Positions 1-64,000 of a stretch of DNA of 64,000 bases are shown one piece after another (the stretch's first letter is position 1; each line of letters begins with the position of its first letter). The translations under genes and the position numbers were made by a program. Source of the DNA: Takakia lepidozioides (taxonomy: Eukaryota; Plantae; Bryophyta); contig CM060731.1 of NCBI GenBank assembly GCA_030704615.1, forward strand, positions 22,506,001 through 22,570,000, written 5' to 3'. The notes under the pieces were generated by a model that was given only the letters and a program-made list of their open reading frames with translations, did no database searches and was not told the origin of the DNA.

Positions 1-1130
1 CCGTCAGGAGAGGAGGAGAGTGTGGGGATTGCACCAGGACCACCTCAATTGTCTCCATTGGACACCACACCTATTGTGTGGCAGTATCCGGATGAAGGCA
101 TTTGTCTTCTGGACTTGTTTGGCGGGATCAGCACCGGATTGGCTGCTGTGTTACAAGCAGGTGTACGAGTTTGGCGTTACCTGTATGTGGAGAGGGATGA
201 GACTGCACGACGCGTTTCACTTCGCCATGTTGCTCAGTTGGTGCAGCGGTACCCTGAGTTGTTGTCGGTGTCTGCAATTCGTGGATATCAGCAGGCCTTG
301 CCACAGACATTTCGTTGCTGGGGGCGCAGGATTTGGAGCGGGTTGGCTCCATTGATCTGGTAGTGGCAGGTTGGCCCTGCCAAGGGCATTCATCATCCGG
401 GCATGGCAATGGATTGCGAGACTCGAGGTCGGGTCTGTTTTGGGAGATGGTGCGGGTTTTGCGCCACTTGCAGCTTCATCAAGCTGTATCTCCAGCATAC
501 ATCTTGGAGAATGTGCCACTGATGGGCGATTCTCGGGCCAGGGTGATGGCCAGTGTGCATCAAGTCCGGTCGTGGCTTGGGTCAGCAGTGTTGCTAGATG
601 CAGCTACAGTGGGGTCACGGGCTCATCGTCCACGGCTATGGTGGACTAACTTGATGCCACCCGCACTGCTCAAGCGTGCATTTGATGGGGTGCAGCGGCC
701 AGCACATCTCACAGTGGATAACATTCTGGACACAGGGAGGCAGTCTCAGCGTGTGAGACACGATGACCGTTCGCCTTTGGCAGTGGTCAACAAGGTGGGT
801 CAACCACGAGCAGCATTACCTACACTGCTCAGCTTCCCAGGATCGCATGCTTTCCGGGATAGTGGACCTGGCCTCCTGTGGGATGCTCAGTTGCAGCAGT
901 TAGTGGAGCCTAATGCTGACGAGCGTGAGCGGGCAATGGGTTTTACCACTGGTACCACGGCGGTGTCGTCTCTTTCTGAGGCATCACGTCGTCAAGTGTT
1001 GGGGCAAGCAATGGATCTCAATTGCTTGACCTGGATTATCAGCTTGGCTCTGGCTGAGCAACGCAGAGTGCGGAGTACACTTCCCTCAATGGTCTCTCTG
1101 CCTACCGAGACGGTACAAGCAGTGAGTGGG
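1..1130 (+). CDS. DNMT3-like C5-cytosine DNA methyltransferase domain of the retroelement polyprotein (one frameshift near 305)
   Basis: ORFs 22-363 and 315-1223 together give the main motifs in unpermuted order: I LDLFGGISTG, II YVERD, IV DLVVAGWPCQ (PCQ 375-383), V SGLFWEMVRVL, VI YILENV (ENV 507-515), VIII LDAATVGSRAHRPRLWWTNL, IX ERERAMGF, X RRQVLGQAM. The reading frame is open from base 1. Confidence 0.9.
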
Positions 1131-1156
1131 GGCGAGCATGTGAGGACCACGGGTGC

Positions 1157-4048
1157 ATGCATCCATGGCACACGTGGGAGGTGCTCGAGGTTCAGAGGGA
1201 GTTGGCAGCCAAGGCGGCTGTGATAGATGAGGTTGGGGATTCTTCTCGGGTTGAGGAGGTCCTCAATGATGAGATGATGGGGCAGGATGAGGTCTTGTCA
1301 TTGACTGAGCAGGCATGGAGTACTGCTCAAGAGGTTGCAGCATAGCAACCACGGGACGCGTCCTCTACCTCTAAGCCCACTGGACTTAAGGTTGTAGTTA
1401 CGGAGGACAATTGGGAGCCTGACATTGGACCCATTGTCACCGGAGGAGAGAGACGACGTATACGGCGGTTCCTGAGGGCTTACAGGAATTGCTTTGCCTT
1501 CAGTCTGAAGGACTTGGGAGCACTGAAGGGTCAAGAGATCCGTATTGAGTTGGCCACTGACACGCCAATCTTTCGGAGACCCTATAGATACAGTGACATG
1601 GAGAGGTCTTTGATTCAGATGAGGACTCAAGATCTCTGGGAGGCAGGTTTGGTGGAGCTCTCTGGTGGAGAGTATGCTTCAGCCACAGTGATGCCAGCCA
1701 AGAAGGATGTCTATGGCAATTGGACGGAGAGACGTATGTGCGGTGATTACCGGCCTGTAAATCGTCAGACCAAGTCCGATAAGTATGCCATGCCAACACC
1801 AGAGGAGATCTTTGATGCCATCGGGCATGCTAAGGCCTTTAGCACTTTGGATTTACGATCCGGATATCACCAGTTGCCAATCAAGGAGGCGGACAAGCAG
1901 AAGACCGCATTCTGGGGGATCAATGAGCACGGCAAGGATTGCCTATACCAGTGGCGGTTCTTACCATTTGGGCTTAAGAATGCTCCTGCAGAGTTTCAGA
2001 GAGTCATGGATAGGATTCTAGCAAGGGTGGACTTTGCTCGGTGCTACATAGATGACATCATCATCTTTAGTGTTACGATGGAGGAGCATGAGAGACACCT
2101 TCAGGTGGTATTGGAGCGCTTGAGAGCGCACGGATTGAAGTTGCATCCGGGGAAGTGCAAGTTTTTCCACAACCAGATTGAGTATCTGGGTCACATGATA
2201 TATCCTGGAGGATTGGGGGTACAGCAAACTAAGGTAGAGGCCATTGCACAAATTCCACGCCCCACGGATGTGAGCCGAGTTCGAGCTTTCATGGGGTTGG
2301 CAAACTATTATAGACGGTTTGTCAAGGGATTTAGTACCATTGCAAAGGCTCTAACCAAGCTGACCAAGGTGGACCAGGAGTGGCAGTGGGAAGATGAGCA
2401 GGAACGAGCTTTTCAAGAGCTCAAGGCGAGGTTGACCTCGGCGCCTATCTTGAGACGACCTATCAGGGGGCGTCCTTTTCAGCTGCATACGGATTGGAGC
2501 ATGTTGGGGCTTGGAGCGGTGCTCACACAGGTGGATGATGAGGGAAGAGAGTTCGTAGTGGCTTACGCTAGCCGCTCGAACAACGCTGTAGAGGCTAAGT
2601 ACAGCTCATATGAGGGAGAGTGCTTAGCTGCAGTGTGGGCCGTGGCACACTTCAGGTGCTATCTATACAGCAATCTTTTCACCCTTGTCACGGATCACCA
2701 GCCACTCAAGTGGTTGATGGAGTCAGACAAGCTTACGGGGAAGCTTGCACGGTGGGCACTTATACTCCAGGAGTATGACTTCCAGGTTGTGCATCGACCG
2801 GGTTTGGTCAATCGGGATGCGGATGGATTGAGTCGCAATCCATGCATGAGCCAGCAGGATGACACTGGAGCTCGGTGGCATGGTGAGACGGACGAGAAGA
2901 TGGTGCCGGGATGGCACGCATCTGCATTTTTGTGTATCTTGGCATGGGGAGGTCAGATTGGACCTACAATAGGGATGACTGTAGACGGAGTGTCTGAGGA
3001 CCTTGAGGCTAGTGATGAGCTAGGTGGTGCCAGAGATATACATGAGGATTCGGCTGTGTTGGACTACCTCCGCACGGGAGACACGGCAGCCATTGTGACT
3101 GCCAGGGAGAGGGATCGGATCCTGCAACGAGCCAAGAGGTTCAAATGGGAGGGGATACACCTACTTCGAGTATGGGAGAATGGTCGGGTGAGGATTGTGC
3201 CTCACCCCACACAGCGTGCACGGTTAGTGCGGCATGCCCATGAGGAGTTGGGGCATTTTGGAGTGCGACGCACTCACAGTTTACTGCAGGGGCAGTATTG
3301 GTGGCGTGGTATGCATACAGAGGTGCAACAGTTCGTGGCTAGGTGCATGGTATGTGACAGGGTGCGTGCTTCATTCAACGCCCCTACACCACAGTTGCAT
3401 CCTTTACCAATCATGGGATTGGGCTACAGGTGGAGTCTTGACTTCGCAGGACCGTTGCCACTGACTATGCGCCACCACAAATATGTGTTGGTGATGGTGG
3501 AGCACTTCTCCAAGTGGATTGAGTTGGTTCCATTGCCTGACAAGGCTAGTGAGGGGGCTGCGTATGCATTCTTGGATCGTGTGCTTAGCCGATTTGGTGC
3601 TCCAACTGAGGTACTCACGGACCAAGGGAGAGAGTTTTTGGGGGAGTTTCAGGCTTTGTGTGATAAAGCCTTGATAGACCACCGCACCACTTCTCGGGAT
3701 CATCCTGAGGCCGATGGCTTAGCAGAGAGAGTTGTTCAGACGGTGAAGAGGGGTTTGCGCAAGTATGGCTTGCAGAAGGGACACCTAGGAGATTGGGATC
3801 TTCAGGTTCCTTGGTTAGCCATGGGCTACAGGTTCAGCAAACAAGCATCACTTGCCTCTTTCTCACCATATTTCCTTCTCTTCGGCCGGATTTGCCTGCA
3901 GCCATTCGTAGGGACACTGCTCAAGTCCTTAACCTTCACGATCCAGACGTGTGGGTACGTGCATGTGATCAGCGTGCAGAGTTGTTCAAGAAAGTCATGC
4001 CCATGGCTTTTGAGAACCTTGCCATTGCACAGCACCGTGATACGTTGA
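1157..4048 (+). CDS. pol: Gypsy pol: linker, reverse transcriptase, RNase H, integrase core
   Basis: ORFs 1157-1345 and 1514-4048 share a frame and are separated by a single TAG (1343-1345). Motifs: RMCGDYRPVN, LDLRSGYHQ, PFGLKNAP, YIDD, LHTDWS, TDHQPL, HEELGH..CMVC, SLDFAGP, TDQG, AERVVQ. Frameshift near 3890. Confidence 0.95.
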
Positions 4049-4473
4049 GGTATGCCACTATACATGGTGGAGGATATCGTCATGGGGTTCGGAGGTTTAG
4101 CCCTGGTGACTATGTTTATTTGCAGCAGACTGCTCCTACGACTCTGGATGTTACTGCAGGGCGTGTTATTCTGAGGGTTCGAGAGGTGTTGCCCTCAGGG
4201 GTCCTGATCTTGGAGGGTCGGGATGGCATGACTTGGAAGGACCATGTGCGTAATTGTGCGTCATGTCACCTTCCCAATGTCGATGGCAGAGTTGACCCAA
4301 ACTTGGCAGTGGTACCTGCAGGTTTGAGGTGCATGCTTTGTGGGTCTGCCAAAGGGGCAGCCACCATGCTGGTGTGTGATCGATGCTCAAGGGGTTGGCA
4401 TATGGGATGCTTGACACCACCTCTTGAGAAGGTTCCTGACGGAGATTGGTTGTGTCCACACTGCTTGGGATAG
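3890..4473 (+). CDS. Integrase C-terminal region ending in a C4HC3 PHD finger (about 4330-4464)
   Basis: CMLC-x11-CDRC-x4-HMGC-x11-WLCPHC immediately before the stop codon, preceded by an SH3-like FSPGDYVYL module. Confidence 0.9.
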
Positions 4474-4724
4474 TGGCAGTGGACATGACTGGAGGCAGCT
4501 AACAAGACATGGGAGGCCAAGCTCATAGGAGTCAATACATGAGATCCCAAGCTCAAGTTCACAGGTTGCAAGACGGCGACTAATGATGGGGCAACTCTTG
4601 CACCCGTCTATCGAGTTTGAGTGTAGTAGGGATAATGGTGGAGGACTTAGTGAGGCTATGGTCACTATCACATCTTGTGGCTACCTGGACTTAGAAGGAC
4701 CTAAGCACCAGCTAGGGGGGCGAT

Positions 4725-4912
4725 TGTGTGGACTAGTGACTGCCATAGTGGGCAGCATAATGGCAGCCTAGTGACTGACTAGTTGTAGCCTAGTGGTTGG
4801 ACTAGTGGTTGGACTAGTGGTGGACTAGTAGTATACTAGTGTGTGGTGTGCACATGTGTTGTGTGGTTTTGGACAGCGATGTAGTTGTGTAGCGATATGT
4901 ATGCGCACGACA
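4725..4912 (+). repeat. Putative 3' LTR of the DNMT-Gypsy element (short, with internal GGACTAGT-type repeats)
   Basis: TG directly follows the polypurine tract. A candidate end ...GCACGACA at 4912 is followed by a shift to AT-rich sequence. The partner LTR is outside the window, so the right end is unverified. Confidence 0.45.
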
Positions 4913-5941
4913 GTATAAATGGACAAACAAATGTGGAAGACTCGCACTCACTAGAACTTGGTGTGTATAATTATGGTAAAAAAATGAAAATAAAAATGGA
5001 GAAACAAATATTATGGAAGAGTCATTGAGACGGACAAGTATTTAAATTAACGACTCGTCGTTGGAACCTAGTCTTAAGATACATAGAAAGCACACTAGTA
5101 CATAAAATTGATAAGTGCATGTGAATTCAAAACAAACGAGAAAAGTAGCGCAAAAAGGAAGGGAGAAGAGATTTGGATTACCATAAGGTCCATAACCATT
5201 ATTGGTTATGTACATTGGATAGTACAATCATATTTGCAAAAGGAATGGTGAGGGTTTAGGGATAAATGCTTAAGGATCTTTTAGGGTAAAGGGTTTAGGG
5301 GAAAGGGTTTTACTAGGATAAGGGTTTACTAAGGTAGGGGTTTTGGTTTAAGTTAGAAATGGACAAACAAACATGAAAGACCGTTTGTCGCTAGACATAG
5401 ACTCGCTTAGAGGTCCAGGAAAAGGAAGAAAACATGAGAGGTATAAGTTAAGGAGTGACAAATTGAAAAGTGTGGCAATAATGATAGGGTAAGGGTCCTC
5501 TTAGTGGGATACCTCAGTTGGAGACTTGGCTTGAGTCAAGTGCAAGCACTGAGAGACGGACTAGAATTGGCGCAATGACGATACATTGAAAAAAAACATT
5601 TAGACCGGATTGGAAAAGAAAGACTCTAGGGGTTGTGCCAGCATTTTGCTTTTTGGGGTGCATTGTCTGTTTTGTAAGCCAGAATCCCCCACACAAATAT
5701 TTATAGATGAACAGAATGTACAGCAGTGCAGAATCCAGCACGTCAAAAAAAAAAAAAAAATTTGAACGTCCACTACCCACTCGAGGTTCAGTGCGACAGA
5801 AACAAAAAAAACAGGAATGATCCCCCAACGCAAACACGAAGGGAAAAAAGCGTAAAGAATTTTTTTATTTTAAAACAGAGGACCGGAAATCACCTCAACA
5901 TTTAGTCCATGGACTGAAAGTGGTTCACAAGAAGGCAACCT

Positions 5942-8900
5942 TCAGATATCTGGCTGAAGGTTAGCCTCCTCCAAATTCGCGCGCGCCTTCACTGCTTCCA
6001 CCGCTGTAATTCTCTTGGTGCTATTTCTTGTCGTATTTTTTCGTGGCAGCATTGTCCACACGACATTGTTCACGTGGATCCTTGAGCAGGATCTGACGGG
6101 TTGTACTCCCAAACTTTTGATCAGCAGTCCCTGTACCTCTCAAAGTCTGAGGGGTTACCTCTTTTCTTTGGTCTCCACCACTTCACCTTCACTTTCTTAA
6201 AATTAAGATCTTCCCTTTCTCGGATGACATTTAAAATTGTCATTCCCATCCAGACCGGGCACGTCGTTGGGTCATGAAGGCGAACGAGCACAAAAAACCC
6301 TTTCTCAATATCCTTGAACGGATTCAAGGGTATTATTGGACGCTCGCACCTAGGGCCACAGTAAGGTTCTGGAACTTCATCCTCATCTTCCATATCTTCC
6401 AGTATCTGTGGCTGGATGCCATCCCTCCGATGGTTTGAGGACCAATTTGTTTTCGGCCAGAATCCCTCAAGAAGCTGAATACGATCCGGAATGTTCTGCA
6501 TTAGCTTATCAAGTTCAGCAAGAATATTTCCCCAGTATTGGTCGTATTGTTCCATTACACCCCGGTAATGATCGTCAAGCAACATTCCATTGGTCCAAAA
6601 ATCTCTATATTTCTTAATACCATTTTTAATGAAGGACTGTTTTTCGGAGGAGTCGTCCCTGACTCCCCATATCGGTCTTCTTGGAACGGCATCTGGGTCT
6701 ACTTCAGGGAGATTTGGAATCCCATCAGGGTTGGACTTCCACATCTTAACGTTGGAGTTTGTAGGAAGCCACTCCAAATCAGTAGAGCTCTGACTTCTTG
6801 TACTTCATAATGGGCCAGCCATCCGCATTCTTAAAAAACCGAAAGACGTGCATCTCTGAGATCCCGACCAAAGCCTCATTTCCATCAAGAGTACAACCAT
6901 TAACAAACTTCTTGAAGTCGGGAACCTCCTGAATAATTTGAGGAATGAATTGCATATCTTGGGAGATCATGAATGACCTCATCAAATCCGGAAGAATGTA
7001 GGTGTTGCGTTCCTTTAGCTTCTTCGAGAGATAGCTAAAAAATCCGTCAATATCCTCATGGGTGTGCCTGACCATGAGAAAACCAAGCTGGATCTCTTCA
7101 AAGACATCTTTGGCAGTGAGGAGGGATTCTTATTGTCCTTGGAGGAGTTGTCCATCTGCAAATAAAGTCGTTTAGGAAGTGGTCGAGCACCACGTTTATC
7201 TTACGGCCTGTAGGGTTTCAGAGCCTCCAAACATCTCGATTTACCTCTCATGAGCGTTTCAAAAAAATCATTTTGAACTTCATTATCGAAAATGTTCCTG
7301 GATTCCCGACATGTCGGCTTTTCCAGTTGACGCAGGCACTGAGCCAGCGACCCAATTGTGAAGTTTGAATTGTCCTTCCAGAACTCAAGAGAAAATTGAG
7401 CGTAAGCTTCATCACCGTGTCTATGCGTAACCATTCTTGTCAATGAGACAGACAACTGACCTAATCCCGAGACCATCTTGTTCGTCGTCTGTAGCCTCGG
7501 AATAGCCATTTTCCTATTATTCATCTTATCGTGAATAATACACAGGAACTCCTCCGGAATCATAGACTCATTCCTCCAGCTATGGTACAGCCTTCTGCAT
7601 GACTCTTGATGTCTCAAGTGTAATCAAACGCCTGCTTATGTGCGACCTGTTCGGAACTCCTCTTAATTTACTTCTTGATCAAGTCCTTCAACATCTCGCA
7701 TTATGTGCACTTAGCAAAGGTGCTTCCGATTTTCCGAACCTCAGAATAAACACGGTGGTGGCGGCTGAAGTCTGTGCCACTTTTGTCGCTTCCAGCACAA
7801 CATTCACCCTTGTTTTGTTTTGGTTCTGTATACGGCTTACAACTGGCTGCGAGACTTTTTTCAAACCGAGAAGTCTGTTCGTCTGCACCCCAACTCCCCA
7901 ATAATGTCAATGTCCACTGGGCAGTGGAGGTCCTACAAAGTGGAAGAACAAGAAAGCATGATGGCATCAACAAGAATAAAATCAGCCACAGTATTATGAA
8001 AAAAGAAAGGGGACAACGAATAAAAGTCACCTCGTTGGACTCCTCTCAAATTCTCTTCCAGTTCATTTCGGGTGGCAAAATTCTCAAATTATCCCGACGT
8101 CCCTCTCCAATGCAACGTGTTTTGTGAGGCATAAGGTCAATATCGGCATTGATAATGGACATAATGTTCTCCTCTGCCTGGGGTATCCCTGTTCAAGGCC
8201 GCTTGACGCCACGATTTCCGCGGAAAGATGACAAACAACCCTCTTTACTGAGCTTTTTGTACTCCATGTACGTTGACCTTCCAATTTCGTGTATTATCCA
8301 CCATGTTTTCTCACAAACATCAACACCTTCTATCGTAACATACGACCTGCGCGATGCCCCTTCCATAATGTGAAGTCGTTTTGAAACATTCAATCCAAGT
8401 TCTCTCTTCTCATCGAATGACGAACCCCAAAATGTAGTACGAATTGCCAAGGTTTTTCTCCAATCAAAATACTGGCAGCACTGAAGCTTGCAGCAAGGTT
8501 TGCTGCTCACCGACCTCACTTCCTCCAAAGTCAGATTTTTCTTGCATTCTTTTTAGTCCCCCAAATTGGATGTTTTTTTCTTCCTATTAAAATGCCTGTA
8601 TGCTACTTTCTTCACGCCTGTACCATGGTCGTCATTCTCCATGTCACTGCATGATCGCATGAAATTTTCGAGATCAACGGAGAGTATTCGGCCATTTTCA
8701 AGAAGTCTTGTTTTTGTTAACGACCATTTCACAATGGACATCAGATAACCGGATTCTCCAGAGATTGTTCTGGTGACCAAAACCCCAACATCGTCCTCTC
8801 CGAGTTTGTCATTCAGAATGATCTCGTTAGGAATGCATGCCTGAATTCGGCCTTCGAACAGGGCGTTTTCGTCCTCCCCAAGAAGAAGACACTGCAAGTT

Positions 8901-9320
8901 TCTCCAACAATCTCTCCCAAGACCTACAGCCGGATCCTCTTCAGTTTCACCGTTGGACGGAATTTCATTGCTTTCAGTGCTTTGTCCTTGATAATCACTA
9001 TCTTCTGTGATGGAATGACATCCCGGGTTTGTTTGAGATGCTGAATCCACAGTTTCATGCGAGTGAACACAAGAGACATCCCACACAACTAGAGTCCCAA
9101 TCGCCTCCTTCAATGTGTCAGTATCTATGTGTCGATAAGGCAGAGGATAGGAGCTGAATGCGTCATCACAAAAGATCATGGTAACTGAAATGGTAGACGA
9201 ACACAAGTGGTGTTCGTGGCAAGTTCCTTCCCCAGAAACATTTAGGCAATCTCCTGAGGCAACCACTGATGGAGATCCAGGAAGCGACAGAAACACCTTT
9301 TGGCCTACTTGGAGCCCCAT
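5942..9320 (-). pseudogene. DDD/E transposase, Sola/DUF7869-like, with N-terminal Tnp1/En-Spm-like domains; disrupted
   Basis: Fragments read PCCKLQCC..RTTFW..VCEKTWWIIHEI, FAKCT, CIIHDKM, LYLQMDNSSKDNK and FLMVRHTHEDIDGFFSYL. There is an intron at about 7886-8029 and several stops and frameshifts. Likely start is MGLQVGQKV at 9320. Confidence 0.7.
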
Positions 9321-9329
9321 GAATTTAGT

Positions 9330-9353
9330 AACCTCCACTGGGCAGTGGAGGTT
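9330..9353. repeat. 24-bp palindrome AACCTCCACTG-NN-CAGTGGAGGTT (perfect copy)
   Basis: 11-bp perfect inverted arms, 10 bp upstream of the likely transposase ATG. Confidence 0.9.
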
Positions 9354-9603
9354 CAATAAAATCGTATTACAGGAAGGAAGATTAACTGAAGGAAAGAACG
9401 TCGTGCCACCGAAAGGAGGAGTTGAAGTAGAACTTTTTTGACAGTTTTGAATGAGAAAAACAATATGGTTTGAAAAAGTAAAGTCAATGTTTGGATCTAT
9501 CCCGAGACTGATGAAAAACAATTGGATAAAGTGGAGTATAAGGGCGGAATATAGAACAATGTGACTACATCTATCTGAACTATCAGATGAAGTCACAAAT
9601 GCC

Positions 9604-9627
9604 AACCTCCACTGGACAGTGGAGGTT
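9604..9627. repeat. 24-bp palindrome AACCTCCACTG-NN-CAGTGGAGGTT (perfect copy)
   Basis: AACCTCCACTG GA CAGTGGAGGTT. Confidence 0.9.
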
Positions 9628-10406
9628 GGATGATATCTGTTGATGAAATCAACCACATGAATGAACAATGGATACTGAAGAAGCCCTCTGTAGATAAGAA
9701 ATTGATTATAGGGATGGATGAATAATAATGTGGCGACTGCCCAGTGGAGGTTTGGGAGTAACTTTAGACAAACAAAAGCAAGTTTAGTGGGTGCACATGG
9801 AGAGTACAAAAAAAAATGAGTATCATATTATCCTACGTGAGAAATGTGCAGTTGACACCCGAGACTAAGGAAGCAGAGAGAGACTCAGAGGCTGCTTCAG
9901 AAGTACCCTGTGGGCAGAGTGGTGCAGGAAAGGCAAAGAGATGCACGTTGTCAAGAGAGGTGCAGGATGTTCAGAGAGGTGCGCAAGAGAAAAGAAGCAA
10001 GTGAGAGGTTCGCAGTAGGAAGTTGGTGCTGTGTGGAGTCGGACGTTATATAGAGGTGACAAGTAACTTTAATCTTGAATCGCTCCAATGGCAGTGTGGT
10101 ATGTTTTCTCTCCCAGATCGATTGTGGCCACTTTGGATTAAGGCGGAATCGAACGGCTTATTTCAACTCGCGAAATCACGGCTTCATTGAAAGTGTGCAC
10201 AATTTTCCATTTATTGACAGCAGCCATTGTCACATTTAATTATGGAACAAACGATAACAATCGTTGAATTCTATCGTACTTGTACATTAGTAGGACTACA
10301 TGTCTGACATCATTATCGTGCGGCTCTGACAACAGAGTCTGCAATAAGCGTGAAGGATGTCGATTCTGACAAGTGGCCTGGAGAAATGAAGTCATGCGGC
10401 TAATCG

Positions 10407-11017: not shown

Positions 11018-11055
11018 GTTTGGCGAAACTAAAGTTTGTTCCTTAGTTAGTTAAG

Positions 11056-12081
11056 ATGGAAGACACATTTGCGGAAATGGTCGCTACATTGCAGAGTCTT
11101 GAGCTCCAGATGCAAGAACTTCGTGCCTCTACTGCCCAACTACAAGCTGATCAGTCTCAAGATCTTGGCAACGCTCTCCAACAATTTGCAACAACAAACA
11201 ATGGATCTTCAACCTTACGAGTCCCTACTACAACAAATCCTACTGCAACAGTTCTTCCAAATCTTAAACAAATTACAAGGGAATCAAAAGTCAACATGCC
11301 CGAGAAATTTGATGGGACGAGATCAAGATTTCGTGGTTTTATTCAATAAATGCGATTGTTCCTACGACTACATCCACAACGCTACCCTGATGAAGGTATT
11401 CAAGTGGGATTCGTGGGCACCCTTCTATCAGGTATTGCCCTATCTTGGTTTGCACCGCTATTAGAGAAAAATTCGCATTTACTATACAATTTTGAAGCGT
11501 TCATGTCCGAGTTCACTGCAACGTTTGGAGAGAATGATACAGAGAGAGTTGCAGAGACAAAGATGCGAAATCTTCGACAATGAGCACGTCCAGCTTCCGT
11601 TTATGCTGCCGAATTTTGACAACTTATGTGCGATATCGACTGGAATGAGAAGAGCCTCATTTGTCAGTTTCGATGTGGCCTAAAAGAAGATGTAAAAGAT
11701 TTGTTGCTGACAATGTCAAACGTGAATACACTGAGCGAATTCATCACCCAAGTCATTGCATGTGATAATCGTTTGTTCGAAAGACGTCAAGAGAAGCGAT
11801 TTGGATGGTCGACGATGCACCATGCCGCTGCTACTACGACACCAAACACAATGACCCATCAGACATCCGGTAATGATCCTATGCAGATTGATGTTTTCCG
11901 ATTCAAGCCATTGACGCCACAAGAAAAACAAAGACGGCGCTCGAATGGATTATGTCTTTATTACGGAGAAGAGGATTACATAACATTAAACTGCCCCAAC
12001 AAGAGAAGATTCAAAGCTCGGGGCACAACTCAAGTGTTCGATATGAGGAGGTCGGAAAACGAAGATGTCCAGTCACAGTAA
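11056..12081 (+). pseudogene. gag: gag (in-frame stops)
   Basis: PEKFDGTRSRFRGF, LLSGIALSWF, DPMQID and a degenerate zinc knuckle LCLYYGEEDY..NCP. Confidence 0.9.
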
Positions 12082-26602: not shown

Positions 26603-29600
26603 ATGACTTGTGTCACTCGCAATCACTCATCTTTTCCTTCCCGTCATAGGATGGATTTCTCTTCCACCGTCTACCTGTCTCACTTGCATCGTCCCTCTCC
26701 TTCCTCCATAATGTTCGTGCCTCCGTCCCGAGCTCATTGTCGAGGAGGAATTTCTTCTCCGAGCTCCTCCTTTGTTCAATTGTCTACGCCCCGTGCTTCT
26801 GGTGGAGAGATAAGAGCTGACCAGGAGGAGGAAAATGTCACAGCGAACACAATTTCCAATTCAATGAAAGATACTGGAGGAGAAGGCACGGAAGAAAGGA
26901 AAGAAAAAAAGTCGCAGTCATCATGGACCGCGAAGGATTATGAAGGAAACGATTATCTATACAGGCTGGGAAAGGAGTCCGACAATCTGAACATCACAGT
27001 TGGAGCACGGGCAGGCCTCATTGATCATCTGTTTGTGGGCGATTTTCTTGGCAAAGAAGGTTCTTCGATTGACCTTACACCTCCGCATGTCTCACCACTT
27101 CCCCTTCCTCACAATTTGTCATTCTTGTTATGATATCCAACCCCTGCTAACTCAGCCGCCTGCCTCGATCTCAATTATCTATTGGGCCGCATTGTACCTA
27201 GTGTATTCTTTCATTCCAATTAGTGTTCTTCGTGAAAAAGTTGAATTTGGCAGTAGAAAGATTTCCACAGTACCATGGGGATGCTCTGGATACTCTCTCC
27301 ATCTAGAAGACCTCCCCCAATTATCACATTCCGCCCAAAAGGAGATATGCTTCCTTACTTGTCCAGATCATCAGTTTTGATTGACTTATGTTTGGACAGA
27401 GTGAGTGGCTATTGTCTAATGTTGAGTGGTGACAATGCAGCGGATATTGTCTTCAAGTACCGGCAGAAAGTGACGCGCTCTTTCCAGCATCTGCAAGGAG
27501 ACTACTACATTGCCCCAGCATTCATGGTGCGTGGCCATGCCTACGGTCACAGTTTTTGAGTCTCTTTCTGTCTTCCATGGACTCTATGGGGACAAGTCTA
27601 CCAAGCAAGTCCTCATGTGTACATCATCATCTTCTCTTCCTTTCAGTAGTTGCTTTTGGGCTGCTTTTGGGCTTTGGTTTTGTCTCCTCTCTCTTGGTTT
27701 TTTTCCATTTTGTCCCATAAGCTCTTTGAGCTTTCCGCGGACATTATAAAGCACCATTTCATTCGGGGCCCACCCCCGAAACGGTGCAGTAACCGCAAGG
27801 TGAAGTGGCTCTTAGTTACGCCGGCTATGGCCGGCGTCCTCTCTCTCTCTCTACCATTTCATTTCACTTCATTTCCTTTTTACTGCATCTATCCAAACTG
27901 TGTTTGATGGATTTGACTAATTTTTGGCTTGTGTGTAACCTGTTTTGGACGCTTCTTTGCAGGACAAAGTGGGTGAGTGACACGATCCAAGTCCAGTTAC
28001 TCTTCCTTTTTGTTAGGCAAACAGTGTGGCGTCAGATAAAGGAGCAAATGTATGGCTCTTGTGACAGTGACAGAAGAAAAAGACAATCTAGTGATCTTCC
28101 CCATCCTGCGCAGATTGGCAATTAATCCACAGTGAATTCTCACCCAAGGTAGTTAACACTCAATGGGTTGGCCTTTGGAGGTGATGTGGGCTGGTTTCCT
28201 CCAAGACTGGTCATTGCTTATGCTGCTTTCAGAGAATAATGGACTGAAAGTTACCAGTGGGGTGGTTGTCATGTAGTGACTCACATTGTCAAGAACTATT
28301 TGGCACCATGCTTGGATGTGAAGGTGCCACTTATTTTGGGTACCTACCCTTCCTCTGATCCGATTCTCTGCTGTCATATATATCGAACAAAAACTTGGAT
28401 TCTCGTACGTATTTGTGCTTTCCTTCCATGATGCTACAGTGGCAACTAAGGTGACTAGTCCCTGTCTTTGAATAAAGAAGAGTTAGCTGGGGATTGTGGA
28501 GACAAAGTTATTTGCAAAATTTTACTAACAATATTTTAGCTGCAGTCTGTAGGCATGTTTGTCTTCGTATTACGCATCCCAGTTCATTTAACTAGGATGT
28601 AAAATGAGATTTGTATGTGTTGAGGTTTTGCAGGGGTGTGGGGAGGCAAGGGTCAAGGGAAGACATTCCAGACAGAACTTATATTCAAGGCAATGGGTAT
28701 CGAACCAGTCATCTTGTCTGCTGGAGAGATGGAATCAGAATGGGCAGGTTTGTTGGTTCCTTGCAATGTCACATGTTTGTGCAAATAGTAACTTAGTGTT
28801 TCTATAGTGAGTCTGCTACTCAGACCCCACAAAAAGGGTTAGTTTCCCGTGGCGTCAAAGGCCAGAAGCCTATGGCAAGCCAACGTTCAGAGGGAACAGC
28901 ATGAGTACATTCTTCAAACAAATTCTTCATGATGTATGTATGTTAATTTGGCATTTTACCTCAGTGATGAGTTGTATCACTTACTGCATGAGTGTAAAAT
29001 CTCCAAGTGCCTATTTTGTGTTTACTGCGGTTTTCTTTTGAGGATGGAAAAACACACAACTTGTGTTTGCTTAGAATGGATAGCCTTTCGGGTTGGGCAG
29101 GTGAGCCAGGCAAGCTTATCAGGGATCGGTATAGGACTGCTTCTCTAGTAATCAAGAATCAGGTATTCGCTCTTCCTCAGTGCTTTCTCCCTTTCTGCCT
29201 CCCTTTCTCTATTCTTCTCTCTGTAGTTGAATTCACTGCAGAGGGGTCAACTCTGAGGTTAAGAAAACCATGCTTTGTCGCGTTATTAGACCTGCCTTGG
29301 AGTACGGATCTGCTATATGGGTTGATAACTCCAACCAGGCTAAGTCTCTAGAATCCATTCAAGTGGGGGTGCTTAAGGAGTGTATGTCAGCATGCTCCAA
29401 AACAGCCAATGTGGCTGTTCGGGGTGAGTTTGGCATTCCGTCCTTAAGCTTCCGACGAGATGAATTCAAGGTCAGATGGTGGGGTCAGCTGCAACATATG
29501 CCCAACACCAGATATCCTAAATTAATCGACTCTATATCTTGGAAACAGGACCGCCCTGTCAAACAGGCTAAGTCCTGGCAGAAGAGAGTAGAAGAGATCC

Positions 29601-32600
29601 TCAAGGACCTGGACCTGGATCCGCAAGTCTTGACCCTGCTGGATAAATCTGACTTAGAGGCTGTAGTGTCCTCAGCCATGTCTGTTGCCATGAGATTGTC
29701 TGATGAAAATGAAGTTAGGCAGAAAACTTCCCTGAACTTGTTTCCAGTCTGTGACATGGGGGAGGACATCTTGGATGACCTCAAGGGTCTACCCACCCTC
29801 GGCACTAGACTGAAATTTAAACTCAGGGCAGGAAGCCTACCTTTGAACAGCAAACAGAAGCAGAGAGGAAAGGGAGAGTGCAATTGCCCGTTGTGTGGGC
29901 AATCTGAAGACAGTATTCATTTTCTGATACACTGTCCGGGGTTCTCTCACCAAAGAGACGCTCTCTTCAAATCTATTAAGGGAATTGTGCCTGTACCCCT
30001 GTTTACCAACTTTGAAAGTCTCGAGGCTGAGCCAAAAGCCCAGGCCCTCCTGAGGCCTAGTTTTTGGGCAAATCACACACAGCAGATTGATGCTTGTGTG
30101 AAGGGATTTCTAGAGGATATCTGGAAAACCCGGATTAATTCTTTATATGGAGGTAAGTCTTACTACCAACGTCAGCGCTGACAGAGGTAGGTTCTGTCCC
30201 TTTTGTTCCCGCTCAAACTGGGCGCGGGGTCAATGGCCACAAGGCTACGGCAAACAACGTCTTATGAGTACAATCTGTAGTTGAATTGCTGTCCTGTTTG
30301 TCCCACTGACCCTGAAGGTGGAGATCTGGGAAAAAAACGAAGAATGTGAAGTATAGTATTGAAGATTCTTAAACTCTTCATGTGAGGTTTCTTTCTTTTT
30401 TTGGCTCTCTCCCTCTTCTCTCACTTCACATCGATCACACCTGGGTGTCACATCTGTCTATGCCATGGGGCTAGCAGTGCTGTCTTGTGTTCTAGCATCA
30501 TGTTGATTCCAGCCCACTGTGGCTTTGTGCGAGTGATATGGCAAATTTGGGCAGAGTTTCCATATCCTGGTGGGTAGAAACCCCACACCTGCATCAAGGA
30601 GTGTTCATGCGCCTTGTAGAGGATATGTCATAGCCAACATTCACATGGAACAGGCATTTTTAGGCTCAGTAGCGAGATGGGGGGTTGGTGTCAGGGTAAG
30701 ATGAGCTGTCTGATGATCAACGACCTTGATGCGGGGATTGGTCGATTTGGTATGACTCTTTAGGCAAGTGCTTCAAGTTTTAAGGTTTTATCATACCTTA
30801 CATCCTGGCATTTTCTCTAGGAATGTCTCCTGCTGTTATTCGCTTCTCTTGGAAGCTATTTTTGTTTCAGGGCTACATGTACGACTCACTGCTAGTTTAT
30901 TACTTCCTGCCAGTCACTTACAATGTCATCTACATTGTCTTATGCGTGGAGTGGCTAGGTAGCATAATCTCAAAGGGGCAGGGAGCAAGAACTGGAGGTG
31001 AGCAGTACCGGAGAGGACTTTGCATGGAGGCTGGCACATTTAACAGGGAATCTTTTGTTTGCATGTTGGGTGGAGTGAGCAGCAAACACGCAGATGACAG
31101 TGAATAACCAGATGGTGGTGGGCACACTCATGAATCTGGCAGATAATCCGACCCGTGTCAGTGTTGGCCAGGTTTGGAGGGAGGCTGATATCGTGAACCG
31201 TGTGCCCATTATCTGCACTGGAAATGACTTCTCCACCCTCTGGGCTCCGCTAATCAGGGATGGGCGTATGGACAAATATTATTGGTGCGCACTAGTAGTT
31301 TCTGATAACGGGCATTCCAGCACAGATGGCTTCCTATTTTCTGTGTCTTCATGAACTGAGTGCACAAGAGAAGATATTTAGGACGACAATTTGTGCTATT
31401 AGGTCCTTTGTCTTCCTTTCCCTCTTTTCCTCCCTTTTTCTGCCAGAGTGGGCAGATAAGTGGGATGGCCGCAACCATATGGCAAGCGAAGGCTCTCTTC
31501 TCTTTCTTCTCTTTCTCTTTCTCGGATTGGTTTTATGTTGGCCTGCCCTTCTACATCCCTTCCCCACTTCTCCTCATGTCTATGGATTATTCCTGCTGTT
31601 GCTTTTGGGGGTCTGACTGTGCTAGTAAAATCTTAGCTTGCACTTATAAGGAACCCTATGATGGTGGGTCTGCAAATGGGTAAACTATTTACAATCTCTT
31701 GTGCTGAATTCCAGGCAGCCAACAAGAGAGGATTTGGTCAACATTGTTCATCAAATGTACTGCCGGGATGGCCTGACTAAGGAAGACATTGGTCGAATCA
31801 TTGACACCTTCCCCAATCAATGTAAGTCCTTCAAAAAAAACTTTGTTATTTTTAGGACAAGCCCATACATACCAAGGTCCAAAAGAAGTCTGATTCTTCA
31901 TGCTATTCTAGATTCATTCTTTCAGAGATATCTTATGAATATTCATGAAATATTCTTTAGGTTCATTCTTCTTCCTGAACCGATATCAGTTTCACTGACT
32001 TGTATAGAAATGACACAGCACTGGACTTCTATGGTGCTCTACGGTCAAGGACTTACGACGTGCACATTCTCAAGGTATGCCTATCATTTTTGTGTCCTAG
32101 ATTTAAGTACAGAATGGACTGTCCAGAAGCGATTCAAATTCCTCGGAATGTCAGTGATCCTCTCTCTGTACCTAACGTTGTTTGTCTCATTAAAGCTCCA
32201 CTCTAAACATTTCTTGGTTGGGGAGTGATCCGAAGCCTCAAGGATGACTTAATTGAGGGCTCAGATATGGGATTCAAAGAAAACTGCAGAGACTTTGACA
32301 AATCAACTGGGAGGATGGCTTGCCGGTAATCTGCTCCCTAACTAGAAACGCATGTGGAGGTATTGAGGGATGCTGACATCCCTCTGTTGCTGAATCCTGG
32401 CTGCAGTGGGTGGAGGAGATAGGAGGATCTGAGAAATTGGGAGAGAAACTGCTCCGCAGAAAGAAGGATGAGCCCCTTCCCACGTTTGTGCCACCTACGG
32501 TAACACTTCTCTTTCCTTCATTCCCTCCTCGTGCAAGTGGGAGTTCACTGTATTTGACATACGATACTTGATTGGAGCCCAGATAATGTAGGCATTAGAT

Positions 32601-43770: not shown

Positions 43771-44488
43771 TGTCGCGCACCTCACGTCGGTAAGCTCCCC
43801 CCTCAAGTCATAGTTACTCGCTTGATGCGCGCGCCTAACTCCAACCTGGCCGTCGGGCCAACTTGGAGCTTCGGCTGCTCACCGGGACATAACGGTCCCC
43901 CCTTGATCTCCCAAAGAACCCTCCAACGATTTAGAACCAGCAGAATTCCCTTTGGTAGTTGGCAGTCCGGAACAGCTCCCCACTCTTTGGTCGCTTTCCG
44001 GCTCGCTCGCTTACTCACTAGCTTTTGGTCACCAACGGGCTTGCACCATTCTCGGGGTTACTACTCCCTATATATACTTCTGTAGCTGTCCGCGGGGGTT
44101 TCACAAATAACCATGCCATTTTATGGCGAACCACCACGAACACCCTCAACTCCCGGTGATGAGTCGCGGTGAGTCTTGGCCCACTCACCACGGCCCCTAT
44201 GGACCGTGATGAGTCCCAAGACTCCCCACGACTCCCACCACGAGGTCTCTGCCCCAGGGTGAGTCATATGCCACCCCCACTAAGTCCCGCTAAGCTACCA
44301 CCACCCCTTGTGGAGCCACCCCCACCGCAACCAGGTGTGCGGGGCTCCACCTAGTGAGCACCTCCCCCTCCTTGAGTGCTTTGGGCACTCAAGGGTGCTT
44401 CAGCCCCCCATACCTGTCGCTGCCACTGCCCCCACCACAGGGGCAGCCCCTCTTGTGTCCCGACCCCTTGCCCTCAAGGGCCGCGACA
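43771..44488 (-). repeat. 3' LTR, Galadriel-like copy A
   Basis: Direct repeat of 50005-50729. Confidence 0.95.
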
Positions 44489-45395
44489 CACACCCCTACC
44501 AACAGGGAGTCGATGTCCTCATCGGCTTGTACATTTTGTGGAAACGAACATCCAAGTTGTGGCATCCCACATCAAGGAGTTTGTTTCCGTACCATGGCGT
44601 CCCATGGCAAAGAACCAAACCCCACACTTGACTCTACTCTCCACTAGCTAGTTCGGCCGACTTCCTCCAAGTCCCGGCCAAGGGTGGAGCCTCTCAAGCT
44701 CCTCCCAGTGCACTCTTCTTGGCCTACTTCAAGGCCAAGGAACGATCCTCCCCGAGGATCGAATCGCCTTACTGCAACAACATTGCTTGCGACCGCTCAT
44801 GATGCCGCTTTTGGCATCACCTTGAGCAAGGGTTCACCTCGAACCCTCTTTGACTAGGAAGATAACCTTGAACCAACCGCGCGCCCCAATCACTACAATT
44901 GGGTCCGCCTTGGAATGCTGGCGTGAGGTACGGGAACACGCCGAAGCCGTATTACGACTTCGTCCCGAGGCTACACGATTATAGTACGTGAACGGAAGCA
45001 CGTAGCTTCCGCGTTAGCCCGCACTACAAAGCAACCCCCTCGGTAGCATAGTTATAGTATGCGCACGCGCCAGGTGCGCACTAGCACGTGAACTCCTAAA
45101 GAAGGCGCAAGTTTCCTTGCCCCTTTGGATGGAAGTCACCCGATTTCGGCACTGCGCAAACACACAATTAACCCAATTTACCTCTCCCACTTTTGTAAGC
45201 TAGCATGCATTCTACACACTAGCCAACCACACCATGCATCACCATTCCAAACAAAATAGGAAGCACAACATTTGGAACCCATTTCCTTTATAACAAATTT
45301 TTGTACAATACAAGTTTTTGCAATCGGATTCCTAAGCTAGCTAAGCCGGGCTAAGCATGCATTTCCTCCCCCACGCTCCAAGGTTGATGTCCCCA

Positions 45396-48300
45396 TCAAC
45401 GCTTCTTCCGTTTTTGAGGTCGCCCTTTGAAAACTGCAACCGCCTCGGATGCGTTTCCCATTTCTGAGGCACGCACCCAAGATGCTTCCACATGATGATA
45501 GCCCTTCCATTTGACGAGATACTCCGTTTCTCGGTTCTTGAACCTCCTCGACTTAAGTACTGCCTCCACCTCATACTCAAGTTCATTTTCATGATCCAAC
45601 AGCACAAGTGGCGGACGCAACACTTGATGCCGATTCAGACGCGCTTCATCTTTGAAGTAAGGCTTCAAAAGGGAGACGTAGAATACTGGATGCACCTTGC
45701 TGTTTGCCGGCAGTTCCAATTCATACACATCCTCATTCATAACCTTCCGGATGCGAAAGGGTCCCGCATATGGAGGTACGAACTTTGGACTCACTTCCGG
45801 AGGTAGTCGGAAATTCTTGATGTTCAACCAGACCTCCGTGCCTACCTCAAACTTCACTTCCCTCCGCTTCCGATTCGCCTGTCTTTCATACCGTTTCCTA
45901 GCTTTGGCAATGTTGTACTTTGCGAGCTTCAACAAACGCTCGCGTTCTTCCAGTACCGCCGCTACTGCCGGTTCATCAACGTCATGGGCGGCCCAACTTG
46001 TCGGCACCAGAGGTGCTTTTCCATAGACCAATACGAAAGGGGAAACTCCCGTTGCGGAGTGTTCTGTGTTATTATAACAGAACTCTGCCGCGTCTAAGTG
46101 TTCCACCCAGTCTGTTTGGTCTGCCGACACGTAATTCCTCCGAGATCTGCTTCACTACGGAATTCACTCTTTCCGTTTGGCCGTCGGTCGTAGGTCGGAA
46201 GGCGGTGCTCATCTTCAGCCTCGTCCCCATCTTCTTCCAAAGTGCCCTCCAAAATTTACTCGTAAACTTTAGATCGCGGTCCAAGACAATATCCTTCGGG
46301 ACTCCATGATGCTTTAAGACGTGGGCGAAGTAAAGTCACCTTGTTTCCTGCGCCATTGCCGTCTCCTTGGTGGGGTGAAATGGCCCATTTTACTGAACCT
46401 ATCCACCACCACCATGATTGCATCGAATCCTTTTGACAGCGGCATAGCAGTCATGAAATCCATCGAGACGCTTTCCCAAGTCCCCTCTGGAATCGGCAAG
46501 GGTTGTAACAGCCCCGCTTGCTTTTTGTACTCGCTCCGGTTTTGTTGGCATGTGGTGCATGTCTTGACATACTCCTCTGCCTCCTCCCTCAGTTTGGGCC
46601 AGAAATACTCTTTCTTCAAGAGTGTCGCAGTGCGCTTGGCTGCGCCGTGGCCTGCAAGCGGGCTATCATGGCATTCTCTCAAGAGGCTATCTCTGATCCC
46701 TCCCTTCGGCACGTAGAGACGCTTTTGCTTATACCGGAGCAGTCCATTTTGCAAGTGAAACTGCGATTTAACCCCCATCCTCAAGTCCTGCATCACGGAC
46801 TTCGCCAGCTCATCCTTCCGGCAAGCCTTCCGGATCTTCCTTTGGAGCGCCGTCTCGCCCCTGTTTACCAAAAAAGCTGCTGCTTTCTACTTAAGGCATC
46901 GGCCACCACGTTGTCCTGTCCCAGTTTGTACTGGATATCCACGTCGAACACCGCCAAAGTATCTTGCCACCTAAGTTGTTTTGGGGACAACTTGGGCTGC
47001 GTGGCAAAATACTTCACCGTGACATTGTCCGTGAACACCTTCACTGGGTTGGAACCAACATAGTGGCGCCAAAGCTCAAGACAGTGCACCACTGCCTTCA
47101 TCTCTTTCTCGTGCGTCGGCCACCGTCGCTCCACTTCATTCAGTTTCTTATTTTCGTAAGCCACTGGGCGTCCATCTTGCATCAGTACACCCCCAATCCC
47201 GAAGTCCGACGCATCTGTATGAATCTCGAACGGACGATCGAACTCCGGGATTTTCAAGACTGGAGCTTCCGCCATCCGCTGCTTCAATTCAGCAAAAGCT
47301 TGGCTACAAAAGGTGTTCCATGCCCAGACTTTGGATTTACACAGAAGGTCTGACAGCGGCCCCGCGATCTTGGCGAAATTTCTCACATACTTCCGGTAGT
47401 AGGAGGCGAGTCCTAGGAAGGATCGCACTCCCGGGACCGAAGTCGGAGGCTCCCAGTCCAAGATTGCCCTCACCTTCCTGTCATCTGATCCCATCCTGTG
47501 TAATCACATGCCCCAGGAACTCCACTTTTGTGACCCCGAATTCGCACTTTGAAGCTTTGGCATACAGCTTCCCTCCCGCAATTTCTGGAACACCCTTTTG
47601 AGGTGCTCCAGGTGCTCCTCCTTTGTTTTCGAATACACCAAGATGTCATCGATGTACACGATCACAAAGTCATCCAACCACTCCTGGAAAAGGCTGTTCA
47701 TCATCGTGCTAAAGGTCGCGGGAGCGTTGGTGAGTCCAAAAGGCATCACCAAGAACTCATATGAACCATACCTTGTCTTGCACGCGGTCTTCTCCTCATC
47801 TCCTTCCGCCACTCAAATTTGATGATAGTCGGAGCGCAGATCGATCCGGCTGAAATACTTCGCTCCTGCCAACCGATCGAAAAGGTCGTCGATCCTTGGC
47901 AAATGGTACCAGTTTTTTATAGTCACCTTATTCAAAGCCCTATAATCGACACACATCCGCAGCGCCCCATCCTTCTTGTCTACGAATAGCACCAGGGCTC
48001 CATAAGGTGACTTACTCGGCCGGATGTACCCCTTTGACATTAGATCTTTGAGCTGAGTCTTCAGCTCGACCAACTCTCTGTGGCTCAACCGGTAGGGCGC
48101 CTTGGTAGGCGGTTCCGATCCCGATATCACCTCAATCTTGTGGTCAACTCCTCTTCGCGGTGGCAAGCCACTTGGTAAATCCTCCGGCATCACATCTTGG
48201 TATTTCTCCAAAATCCCCTTGATCCAATCTGGGCTCGGCTCCCCATTGCCTTCTCCCTTCACTTCTCTAATATAGAGCAAAAACTGGGGCTCGTGTGCCT

Positions 48301-49949: not shown

Positions 49950-50004
49950 GATGAGGCCAATCCCAAGGACGATCGCCTACTGAACTCTAAGCTCTGATAC
50001 CAAG

Positions 50005-50729
50005 TGTCGCGCACCTCACTTCGGTAAGCTCCCCCCTCAAGTCATAGTTACTCGCTTGATGCGCGCGCCTAACTCCCAACCTGGCCGTCGGGCCAACTTG
50101 GAGCTTCGGCTGCTCACCGGGACATAACGGTCCCCCCTTGATCTCCCAAAGAACCCTCCAACAATTTAGAACCAGCGGAATTCCCTTTGGTAGTTGGCAG
50201 TCCGGAACAGCTCCCCACTCTTTGGTCGCTTTCCGGGTCGCTCACTTACTCACTAGCTTTTGGTCACCAACGGGCTTGCACCGTTCTCGGGGTTACTACT
50301 CCCTATATATACTTCTGTAGCTGTCCGCGGGGGTTTCACAAACAACCATGCCATTTTATGGCGAACCACCACGAACACCCTCGACTCCCGGTGATGAGTC
50401 GCGGTGAGTCTTGGCCCACTCACCACGGCCCCTATGGACCGTGATGAGTCCCAAGACTCCCCACGACTCCCACCACGAGGTCTCTACCCCAGGGTGAGTC
50501 CTATGCCACCCCCACTAAGTCCCGCTAAGCTACCACCACCCCTTGTGGAGCCACCCCCACCGCAACCCGGTGTGCGGGGCTCCACCTAGTGAGCGCCTCC
50601 GCCTCCTTGAGTGCTTTGGGCACCCAAGGGTGCTTCAGCCCCCCATACCTATTGCTGCCACTGCCCCTACCACAGGGGCAGCCCCTCTTGTGTCCCGACC
50701 CCCTGCCCTCAAGGCAAAGGGCCGTGACA
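50005..50729 (-). repeat. 5' LTR, Galadriel-like copy A
   Basis: Followed on the minus strand by the PBS and the gag ATG at 49949. Confidence 0.95.
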
Positions 50730-60764: not shown

Positions 60765-60819
60765 CTTGGTATCAGAGCTTAGAGTTCAGTAGGCGATCGT
60801 CCTTGGGATTGGCCTCATC

Positions 60820-63800: not shown

Positions 63801-64000
63801 ATACTTTGGCGGTGTTCGACGTGGATATCCAGTACAAACCGGGACGGGACAACGTGGTGGCCGATGCTTTAAGTAGAAAGCAGCAGCTAATATTGGTGTA
63901 CAGGGGCGAGACGGCGCTCCAAAAGAAGATCCGGAAGGCTTGCCGGAAGGATGAGCTGGCGAAGTCCGTGATGCAGGACTTGAGGATGGGGGTTAAATCG
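60820..64000 (+). pseudogene. gag-pol: gag-pol of copy B (frameshifts, a stop in RT, protease motif DTE)
   Basis: ORFs 60820-61827, 61834-62166, 62299-62826, 62766-63173 and 63177-63872. Confidence 0.92.

Follow-up and report, generated by a model that had tools for sequence, protein, structure and literature searches.

A Gypsy retrotransposon carrying its own DNMT3-like C5 cytosine methyltransferase (MTase) lies at the left edge, on the + strand, of a 64,000-nucleotide stretch of Takakia lepidozioides DNA (contig CM060731.1, positions 22,506,001 to 22,570,000; hereafter the window, meaning the whole stretch analyzed). Window positions 1-4912 are a 5'-truncated, frameshifted (dead) copy of a bryophyte-type family. 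In this family we regard the MTase as almost certainly a functional part of the element, and in the lineage of the window copy it ends the first open reading frame (ORF1) at a stop codon that precedes the reverse transcriptase (RT) and has very probably been conserved by selection. Our overall reading, which we favor by a modest degree, is that ORF1 encodes gag, protease and DNMT, that its stop is read through to pol, that the MTase is produced in amounts like those of the capsid protein, and that it is likely to methylate new DNA of the element itself.

The domain sequence on the + strand is MTase, RT, RNase H, integrase and PHD finger, and the parts of the copy are as follows:
1..81, + strand: end of the ORF1 spacer between protease and MTase; matches the residues just N-terminal to the MTase in intact relatives
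82..1064, + strand: DNMT3-like C5 cytosine methyltransferase, motifs I-X in normal order (PF00145, E 1.1e-12)
1065..1342, + strand: C-terminal tail of ORF1, about 93 codons, with a copy-specific frameshift at about 1150; relatives end 57-142 residues past the MTase
1343..1351, + strand: conserved in-frame TAG plus CAACCA, a putative CARYYA-type readthrough signal; stop column shared with relatives
1346..3885, + strand: ORF2 (pol), from Pfam and the domain map; first in-frame ATG at codon 85
1730-2200, + strand: RT (Pfam)
2387-2785, + strand: RNase H (Pfam)
3206-3706, + strand: integrase zinc finger and core (PF00665, DDE; Pfam)
3874..4473, + strand: integrase C-terminal region after the frameshift at about 3885; joined to integrase in intact relatives P0232, P0235 and P0236
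4330-4464, + strand: PHD finger (PF00628, E 6.7e-11), with its stop at 4471-4473
4711..4722, + strand: polypurine-tract-like GCTAGGGGGGCG; the motif precedes the B repeat in related loci too
4723..4912, + strand: B repeat with terminal CACGACA, the 3' end of the copy; homologous to the B ends of L032, L061 and L071

The gag and protease regions and the 5' repeat lie to the left of the window start, outside the stretch; in intact relatives the protease motif is found 222-241 residues upstream of the MTase. As had been noted, none of the three forward frames has a protease motif between MTase and RT. The element was first described over 1-4473, but it extends to about 4912. A conventional long terminal repeat (LTR) beginning at 4725 was dropped as a candidate once the repeats of relatives were shown to be split (A-coding-B-A-B) and the 3' ends had been compared; the A2-B2 repeats are absent from the window copy. 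In a comparison with reads, made on contigs of four public runs that represent at most two samples (one possibly the source of the window), loose read ends fell at 4912, with diverse flanks, and at 4913, with the GC-TGTC junction of other copies, and depth falls there; beyond it the window continues as flanking DNA. Depth in run X1 across 1-4900 is about a thousand times the level at 5424-5600, and although depth is not equal to copy number, this contrast fits a highly repeated family. Inside the window no second copy of an MTase-bearing element was found. The copy has three frameshifts, at about 303 (within the MTase), 1150 (in the linker to RT) and 3885 (in the C-terminal part of integrase), the first two of which are specific to this copy because reads of other copies have one extra base at those sites. 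The linker had been described as holding one frameshift and one TAG. Both are present, but the TAG is no lesion, being conserved in the family.

Every motif of the MTase series described earlier was located directly upstream of RT: FGGISTG at 118-138 in frame +1, PCQ at 375-383, ENV at 507-515, AHRPRLWWTNL from 621, and ERAMGF and LGQAM in frame +3 within an open reading frame spanning 258-1223. The domain combines a class I fold with motifs I, IV (PC), VI (ENV), VIII (RxR), IX and X, as expected of a C5 MTase. The best Protein Data Bank sequence matches of the window piece are human DNMT3A/B (DNMT3A, E 8e-8), ahead of HhaI and DRM2, and a profile of 81 relatives scored DNMT3A at 88 bits, a DRM-type chain at 50 and HhaI at 30. 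The MTase of the intact locus L032, when modeled from an 81-sequence alignment, had a predicted local distance difference test (pLDDT) score of 94.9, whereas single-sequence folding gave only 31. The alignment-based model has a template modeling (TM) score of about 0.72 to DNMT3A/B/C, and its comparison with DNMT3 gave a Z score of 29 and a root-mean-square deviation of 2.6 over 274 residues. Its top 35 structural matches were all DNMT3; lower Z scores were obtained for the CpG-specific MTase 4dkj (25) and for HhaI (24). Profile and structure therefore agree with the proposed DNMT3-like assignment, as does the non-permuted arrangement of the motifs. The domain lacks the C-terminal DUF3444 that marks host plant DNMT3 genes, to which neither the window pieces nor any of the 25 relatives scanned gave a Pfam match, and introns are absent as well.

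The family is present in land plants, namely in the named liverworts and Sphagnum, which bears out the claim that a Gypsy element with its own DNMT3-like MTase exists there. A first protein search yielded 71 proteins; in the range of 54-77% identity those with a named source come from Marchantia, Calypogeia and Sphagnum, and in many of the proteins a CCHC knuckle and a D[TS]G protease precede the MTase. A metagenome scan then confirmed 311 loci, and of the 80 retained from these several represent one and the same insertion found twice. The gag-protease-DNMT-RT-RNase H-integrase-PHD arrangement recurs over these loci, which form three groups by MTase identity to the window: mostly 59-71% in group 1, 50-53% in group 2 and about 40% in group 3. 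Locus L032 of group 1 is 90% identical to a Sphagnum protein. Group 3 (L069-L110) is a second MTase-bearing lineage from the same metagenomes. It has GWECQ and IENT/I motifs, an RT that groups with two Calypogeia proteins, and split repeats and 4-bp target-site duplications (TSDs) as in the window's lineage. In FastTree trees of element sequences only (midpoint-rooted, with local supports), the window fell with Calypogeia, Marchantia and Sphagnum-like sequences both for RT (support 0.949) and for the MTase (0.998), and distances in the two trees correlate (rho 0.67, 37 shared tips). Farther afield, the window pol shares 71% identity with a Coleochaete pol protein, and related MTase-bearing proteins were also found in Closterium, Spirogloea, Tetraselmis and Hariotina. 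Marchantia polymorpha has apparently intact, full-length ORF1 genes of 1278-1281 residues that are annotated as hypothetical (for example Mp_4g09160, Mp_5g06330, Mp_5g06860, Mp_Vg00370 and Mp_Vg00540).

Several variants were seen among the relatives. Eight proteins with intact PCQ and EN (P0042, P0046, P0054, P0060, P0063, P0210, P0171 and P0348) have the alternative arrangement RT-RNase H-DNMT-integrase-PHD and fall together in a single RT clade (support 0.999), to which the chlorophyte Hariotina reticulata also belongs; hence the MTase sits in two different slots among related elements. In one lineage (P0040, P0045, P0047, P0048, P0050 and P0051) EHV replaces ENV in motif VI. Insertions of 0.8-1 kb lie within the element at L031, L039, L049, L053, L055 and L089. 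Three element proteins, P0138, P0368 and P0393, were deposited as Obscuribacterales, Leptolyngbya and Synechococcales, and are likely eukaryotic contamination of metagenome bins. Viral contigs were tried as a source of relatives and set aside, as they gave only distant phage-type MTases (30 loci, 33-48% identity across short stretches).

The MTase is under purifying selection. Between the window and group 1, where synonymous sites are mostly saturated, the MTase has a ratio of nonsynonymous to synonymous differences (pN/pS) of 0.24, compared with 0.18 in RT, 0.16 in integrase and 0.14 in RNase H; inside group 2 the MTase stands at 0.20 and the other domains at 0.04-0.08. As the MTase values are low yet above those of RT, the MTase is constrained, but less strongly than RT. 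Among 146 aligned sequences the catalytic cysteine is conserved in 142, the motif VI glutamate in 145 and the two motif VIII arginines in 125 and 129. The sampling tempers these figures. Loci were picked by two MTase peptide patterns (motifs IV and IX), which biases the conservation of those two motifs and cannot reveal copies without the MTase; the conservation of ENV and RxR is unaffected. Among loci so picked no relative without the MTase was found, and there was no sign that the catalytic residues are free of constraint. We predict from the conserved sequence that the encoded MTase is enzymatically active, and consider this probable.

The MTase had been placed inside the pol polyprotein. 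Instead it ends ORF1, with a conserved stop before RT, and only a readthrough product would join the two. The column of the window TAG (1343-1345) is TAG or TAA in 29 of the 35 group 1 loci and in 23 of 28 distinct copies, the five distinct exceptions being two deletions, one linker insertion, one TAC and one divergent sequence, and each of the four group 2 loci has a single in-frame TAG. Thus, the full domain arrangement expected across copies holds, but the single open reading frame expected with it does not hold in the window's lineage. The hexamer that follows the stop is CAACCA in the window, CAGTTA (twice) or CAATCA (twice) in group 2 and CAACCC in nearly all of group 1. The first three spellings all fit CARYYA, the tobacco mosaic virus (TMV)-type, or type I, signal, which is therefore found in the window and in all four group 2 loci; a stop in this context occurs at only 8 of the 2415 stop-like triplets of the window + strand. 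MTase and RT are in the same frame in 19 of 26 group 1 loci and in 4 of 4 in group 2. Past the stop, the window has no in-frame ATG before codon 85, and L057 and L098 have none before codon 117; these positions lie within conserved RT sequence. In addition, 30 of 38 proteins that have a complete MTase and at least 49% identity end without RT, most of them 57-142 residues past the domain. The conserved stop, the hexamer and the preserved frame together indicate that ORF1 is gag-protease-DNMT in the window's lineage, and readthrough is the simplest route to pol. We consider such putative readthrough likely on this sequence evidence. CARYYA alone suffices for TMV readthrough, with efficiencies of 6-10% in stably transformed Arabidopsis and 32% in transient expression (PMC2754532, PMC2194720). 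A stop between gag and pol has been called rare among LTR elements (PMC3441728), and plant elements with two-ORF layouts, GAG-PROT followed by the rest, do occur (PMC6317226). No shared RNA structure was detected 3' of the stop in five sequences, with z values from -0.4 (window) to -3.6. A TGA-CAACTG match in group 3 loci was considered as a readthrough signal and rejected, since it is out of frame.

Several observations weigh against readthrough. The CAACCC of the Sphagnum-like group 1 is one mismatch off CARYYA and is followed by an in-frame ATG, two codons past the stop, which makes reinitiation possible there, and early ATG codons also follow the stop in L037, L058 and L065 (codons 3, 5 and 14). 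Eight of the 38 close proteins run into pol, six of them being plant gene models. In group 3 and in Closterium proteins the MTase and RT are held in one continuous frame, and 14 of 21 same-frame group 3 linkers are free of stops, so an MTase-bearing element does not need the stop. The element and its ORF1 could thus be as we describe while pol arises by reinitiation, from an internal promoter or by splicing. A Coleochaete transcriptome ORF (P0234) that encodes RT-RNase H-integrase-PHD with its own methionine fits this alternative, as do the early ATG codons and the six gene models that join MTase to RT. However, the window, L057 and L098 have no usable ATG, the frame is preserved across the stop, CARYYA is perfect in three spellings, and the joined gene models differ in where the junction falls. 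We consider this route to pol unlikely and retain readthrough.

The repeats of the family are unusual. Self-comparison gave the order A-coding-B-A-B for L061, L071, L074, L075 and L081. Elements start with TGTCATG and end with CACGACA (TGTC...GACA), and 4-bp TSDs flank five of the six A-coding-B-A-B copies spanned whole as well as the A-coding-B copy L042. These duplications enclose the MTase in the relatives, the window's own 5' end being outside the stretch, and no LTR or TSD boundary between MTase and RT was found. B1 directly follows the purine tract, and the join of B1 and A2 reads CACGACA-NN-TRTCAYG, with a two-base spacer, in all 11 pattern-matched loci (spacer GC in 5, AC in 3, GT in 2 and TC in 1) and in L039 too. 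This internal GACA-NN-TRTCA junction mirrors both element ends. Reads of the window's family have it as well, as a GC-TGTC junction at 4913. In none of 22 5' ends does B precede A1, and of 20 3' ends 12 run on into A2 and 8, the window included, stop at B1. No TGG start of a tRNA primer-binding site followed A1 in the four loci inspected. The element is therefore Ty3/Gypsy in its protease-RT-RNase H-integrase order, its 4-bp TSDs and its TG...CA ends, but lacks the identical terminal LTR pair and the tRNA site; it is not of the DIRS/tyrosine-recombinase type, having a DDE integrase (PF00665) and 4-bp TSDs.

These forms could be produced as follows. Reverse transcription would give an ordinary B-A...B-A cDNA, and the integrase would open circles with two or one repeat units at the internal junction, with loss of the two spacer bases. 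Opening at that position would yield exactly the A-coding-B-A-B and A-coding-B forms that are seen. Circular DNA is usually regarded as a dead end for integrase. The junction sequences make integration by this path a possibility, to which we assign somewhat less than an even chance. The alternative is that both ends are copied in DIRS-like fashion from the internal junction and that the short form arises by later B1-B2 recombination. Foamy virus integrase does cleave circle junctions (PMC1180852).

As to the enzyme, translation of ORF1 would end at the stop, so that the MTase would be made at the level of Gag, and readthrough at about 5-30%, the range of TMV-context reporters in plants, would supply RT, RNase H, integrase and PHD. 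Judged from reporter efficiencies of 6-32%, the MTase would outnumber RT and integrase several-fold to twenty-fold. The element's protease would free the MTase within the particle, the freed enzyme would methylate the cDNA at CG sites, and the PHD finger would guide targeting. That the element's own cDNA is the main substrate seems to us an evenly balanced proposition. The CpG content is relevant here. At codon junctions the observed/expected ratio of CpG is 0.37 in the element and 0.77 in an MTase-less chromovirus of the same window with equal GC content (p 1.6e-4), and codon-boundary values in relatives are 0.31-0.54. This depletion fits long-term CG methylation, but the contrast is of one family with one, host methylation could produce it, and the flanks of peat-moss-like loci are equally or more CpG-depleted. 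The 24 window-specific changes (4 in CG, 5 in CHG, 7 in CHH and 8 other) are uninformative as to context. An isolated Klebsormidium domain gave no methylation in yeast, a result its authors call inconclusive (PMC5890265). The most complete version of the model, for a green-lineage Gypsy clade of liverworts and mosses, is that integrase opens 1-LTR and 2-LTR circles at a mid-LTR GACA-GC-TGTC to give both copy forms, that readthrough loads a capsid-level DNMT3-like enzyme, and that the circle is CG-methylated before insertion. This version is rather unlikely to be right throughout.

The abundant MTase might instead act in trans on host chromatin or resident copies, in copy-number control or rewriting of host marks, and not on new cDNA. 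An enzyme made at Gag level would exceed the need of one cDNA per particle, the PHD finger is a chromatin reader, and copy-number restraint has been raised for such elements (PMC5890265). The PHD finger, though, is on the integrase side, and the neighboring MTase-less Gypsy in the window is far less CpG-depleted. In LTR polyproteins fusion to Gag leads to packaging by default, which would place the enzyme in the particle. We judge action in trans to be improbable. Alternatively, the particle could retain the domain for a structural or nucleic-acid-binding role without catalysis, as might be argued from the absence of observed activity of the Klebsormidium domain in yeast (PMC5890265) and from the motif variants of relatives (GWECQ in 30 and EHV in 7 of the 146 sequences). 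The catalytic cysteine, the glutamate and both motif VIII arginines are nevertheless conserved over lineages with saturated synonymous sites, and the full DNMT3 fold, SAM-binding motif included, appears retained in the model, which makes a purely non-catalytic role decidedly improbable. That a host DNMT3 pseudogene lies beside a Gypsy copy by chance would be favored only by the unseen left boundary of the window's 5'-less copy and has virtually no likelihood, given the identical domain arrangement in many loci and in proteins of several genera, the TSDs that enclose the MTase, the lack of DUF3444 and introns, and the correlated MTase and RT tree distances.

The rest of the window holds other repeats. 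The chromodomain Gypsy without MTase that served as CpG control is present in two copies 96.7% alike, at 43771-50735 (- strand) and 60049-64000 (+ strand); its LTRs are of the ordinary type, 730 bp long, and those of the first copy are 96.3% alike. A decayed DUF7869-containing element at 6121-9827 (- strand) is probably a DNA transposon. An otherwise unmatched ORF at 31662-32228 (+ strand), which may include a captured gene fragment, matches the RuBisCO activase AAA helical domain over 35 residues (PF21228, E 4e-7). Three further + strand features without a Pfam match are what we take to be a gag-like remnant (11047-12081), a C-terminal ORF remnant of long interspersed nuclear element type (29231-30181) and a tandem repeat array within a long unmatched ORF (57724-58118). 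A supposed host gene fragment at 26900-27130 had no Pfam match, and no tRNA genes were found in the window.

The question of how a retrotransposon benefits from a cytosine methyltransferase of its own has hitherto been tied to algae with few tools. The apparently intact Marchantia polymorpha ORF1 genes make it testable in a genetic model plant, and from the conserved stop follows a specific prediction of enzyme dose. Split repeats flanked by TSDs point to an integrase that works on circular DNA, and search tools that rely on two identical LTRs would probably miss or mis-cut such elements. The acquisition of the MTase, hitherto placed in one alga, also moves to a clade that spans chlorophytes, streptophyte algae and bryophytes.

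Elements of this kind are already known, the close algal precedent being KnitGypsy-Dnmt3 of Klebsormidium nitens (de Mendoza et al. 2018), which has DIRS-like repeats and its DNMT in the Pol ORF with RT (PMC5890265). Compared by description only, KnitGypsy-Dnmt3 and the window family share a Gypsy backbone, an intronless and non-rearranged DNMT3-type domain under purifying selection, and the A-coding-B-A-B order. KnitGypsy-Dnmt3 differs in being reported from one alga, as a lineage acquisition, and in having the DNMT in the ORF of RT, a layout seen here only in group 3 and the Closterium proteins. The window family is from land plants, and its DNMT ends ORF1 before a conserved readthrough-type stop; its 4-bp TSDs and internal end-to-end junction are features that the consulted parts of the PMC5890265 text do not describe for KnitGypsy-Dnmt3. 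Marchantia is absent from that text and, by keyword, from three supplements, and two later papers on such elements say, in the parts available, only 'streptophytes'. Klebsormidium pol proteins annotated as 'putative retrotransposon' belong to the same wider RT group (45-46% identity, with deep nodes weakly supported), and none has an MTase in the same predicted protein. Among the set P0058, P0061 and P0262, gag-protease-DNMT proteins of the P0058 type stop 13 residues past the MTase, and P0058 and the pol protein P0262, of a Klebsormidium-like RT clade, come from equally long deposited contigs (10044), hinting that Klebsormidium-type elements may likewise be split after the MTase.

Two traits are new in the window family: the conserved readthrough-type stop that places the MTase in ORF1, and the split repeats in combination with TSDs and an internal end-to-end junction. 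Among the papers listed by full-text literature searches, whose range excludes subscription journals, Repbase and theses, none presented in its title or opening abstract lines such land-plant elements, a readthrough stop behind a transposon MTase or this junction. SymbioDIRS-Dnmt3 of Symbiodinium, two copies of which methylate CG de novo in yeast (PMC5890265), likewise has a DNMT3-type domain in an A-coding-B-A-B retroelement, but with a DIRS RT and a tyrosine recombinase in place of the DDE integrase and TSDs. The EpiLTRs/DAM-LTRs (bioRxiv 10.64898/2026.05.21.726589) are also Gypsy-like and combine methyltransferase with chromatin-reader domains; in them the DNMT is the sister of DNMT4, DAM and a chromodomain are present, and the passages found in that preprint mention neither land plants, mosses nor bryophytes. 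Host DNMT3 of non-flowering plants (PpDNMT3a/b) shares the non-permuted DNMT3-type catalytic domain, but there the MTase is N-terminal and joined to DUF3444 (PMC6453930). TMV, murine leukemia virus, Tca2 and SIRE1 have an in-frame stop between coding blocks (PMC2194720, PMC2754532, PMC3441728), as the window copy does, but here the stop follows an enzyme appended to gag-protease. Finally, foamy virus has a palindromic end-to-end junction that serves as an integrase substrate (PMC1180852), the role we putatively assign to the junction described here; in foamy virus the junction exists in circles only, whereas in the window family integrated elements carry it as a fixed, inherited component.

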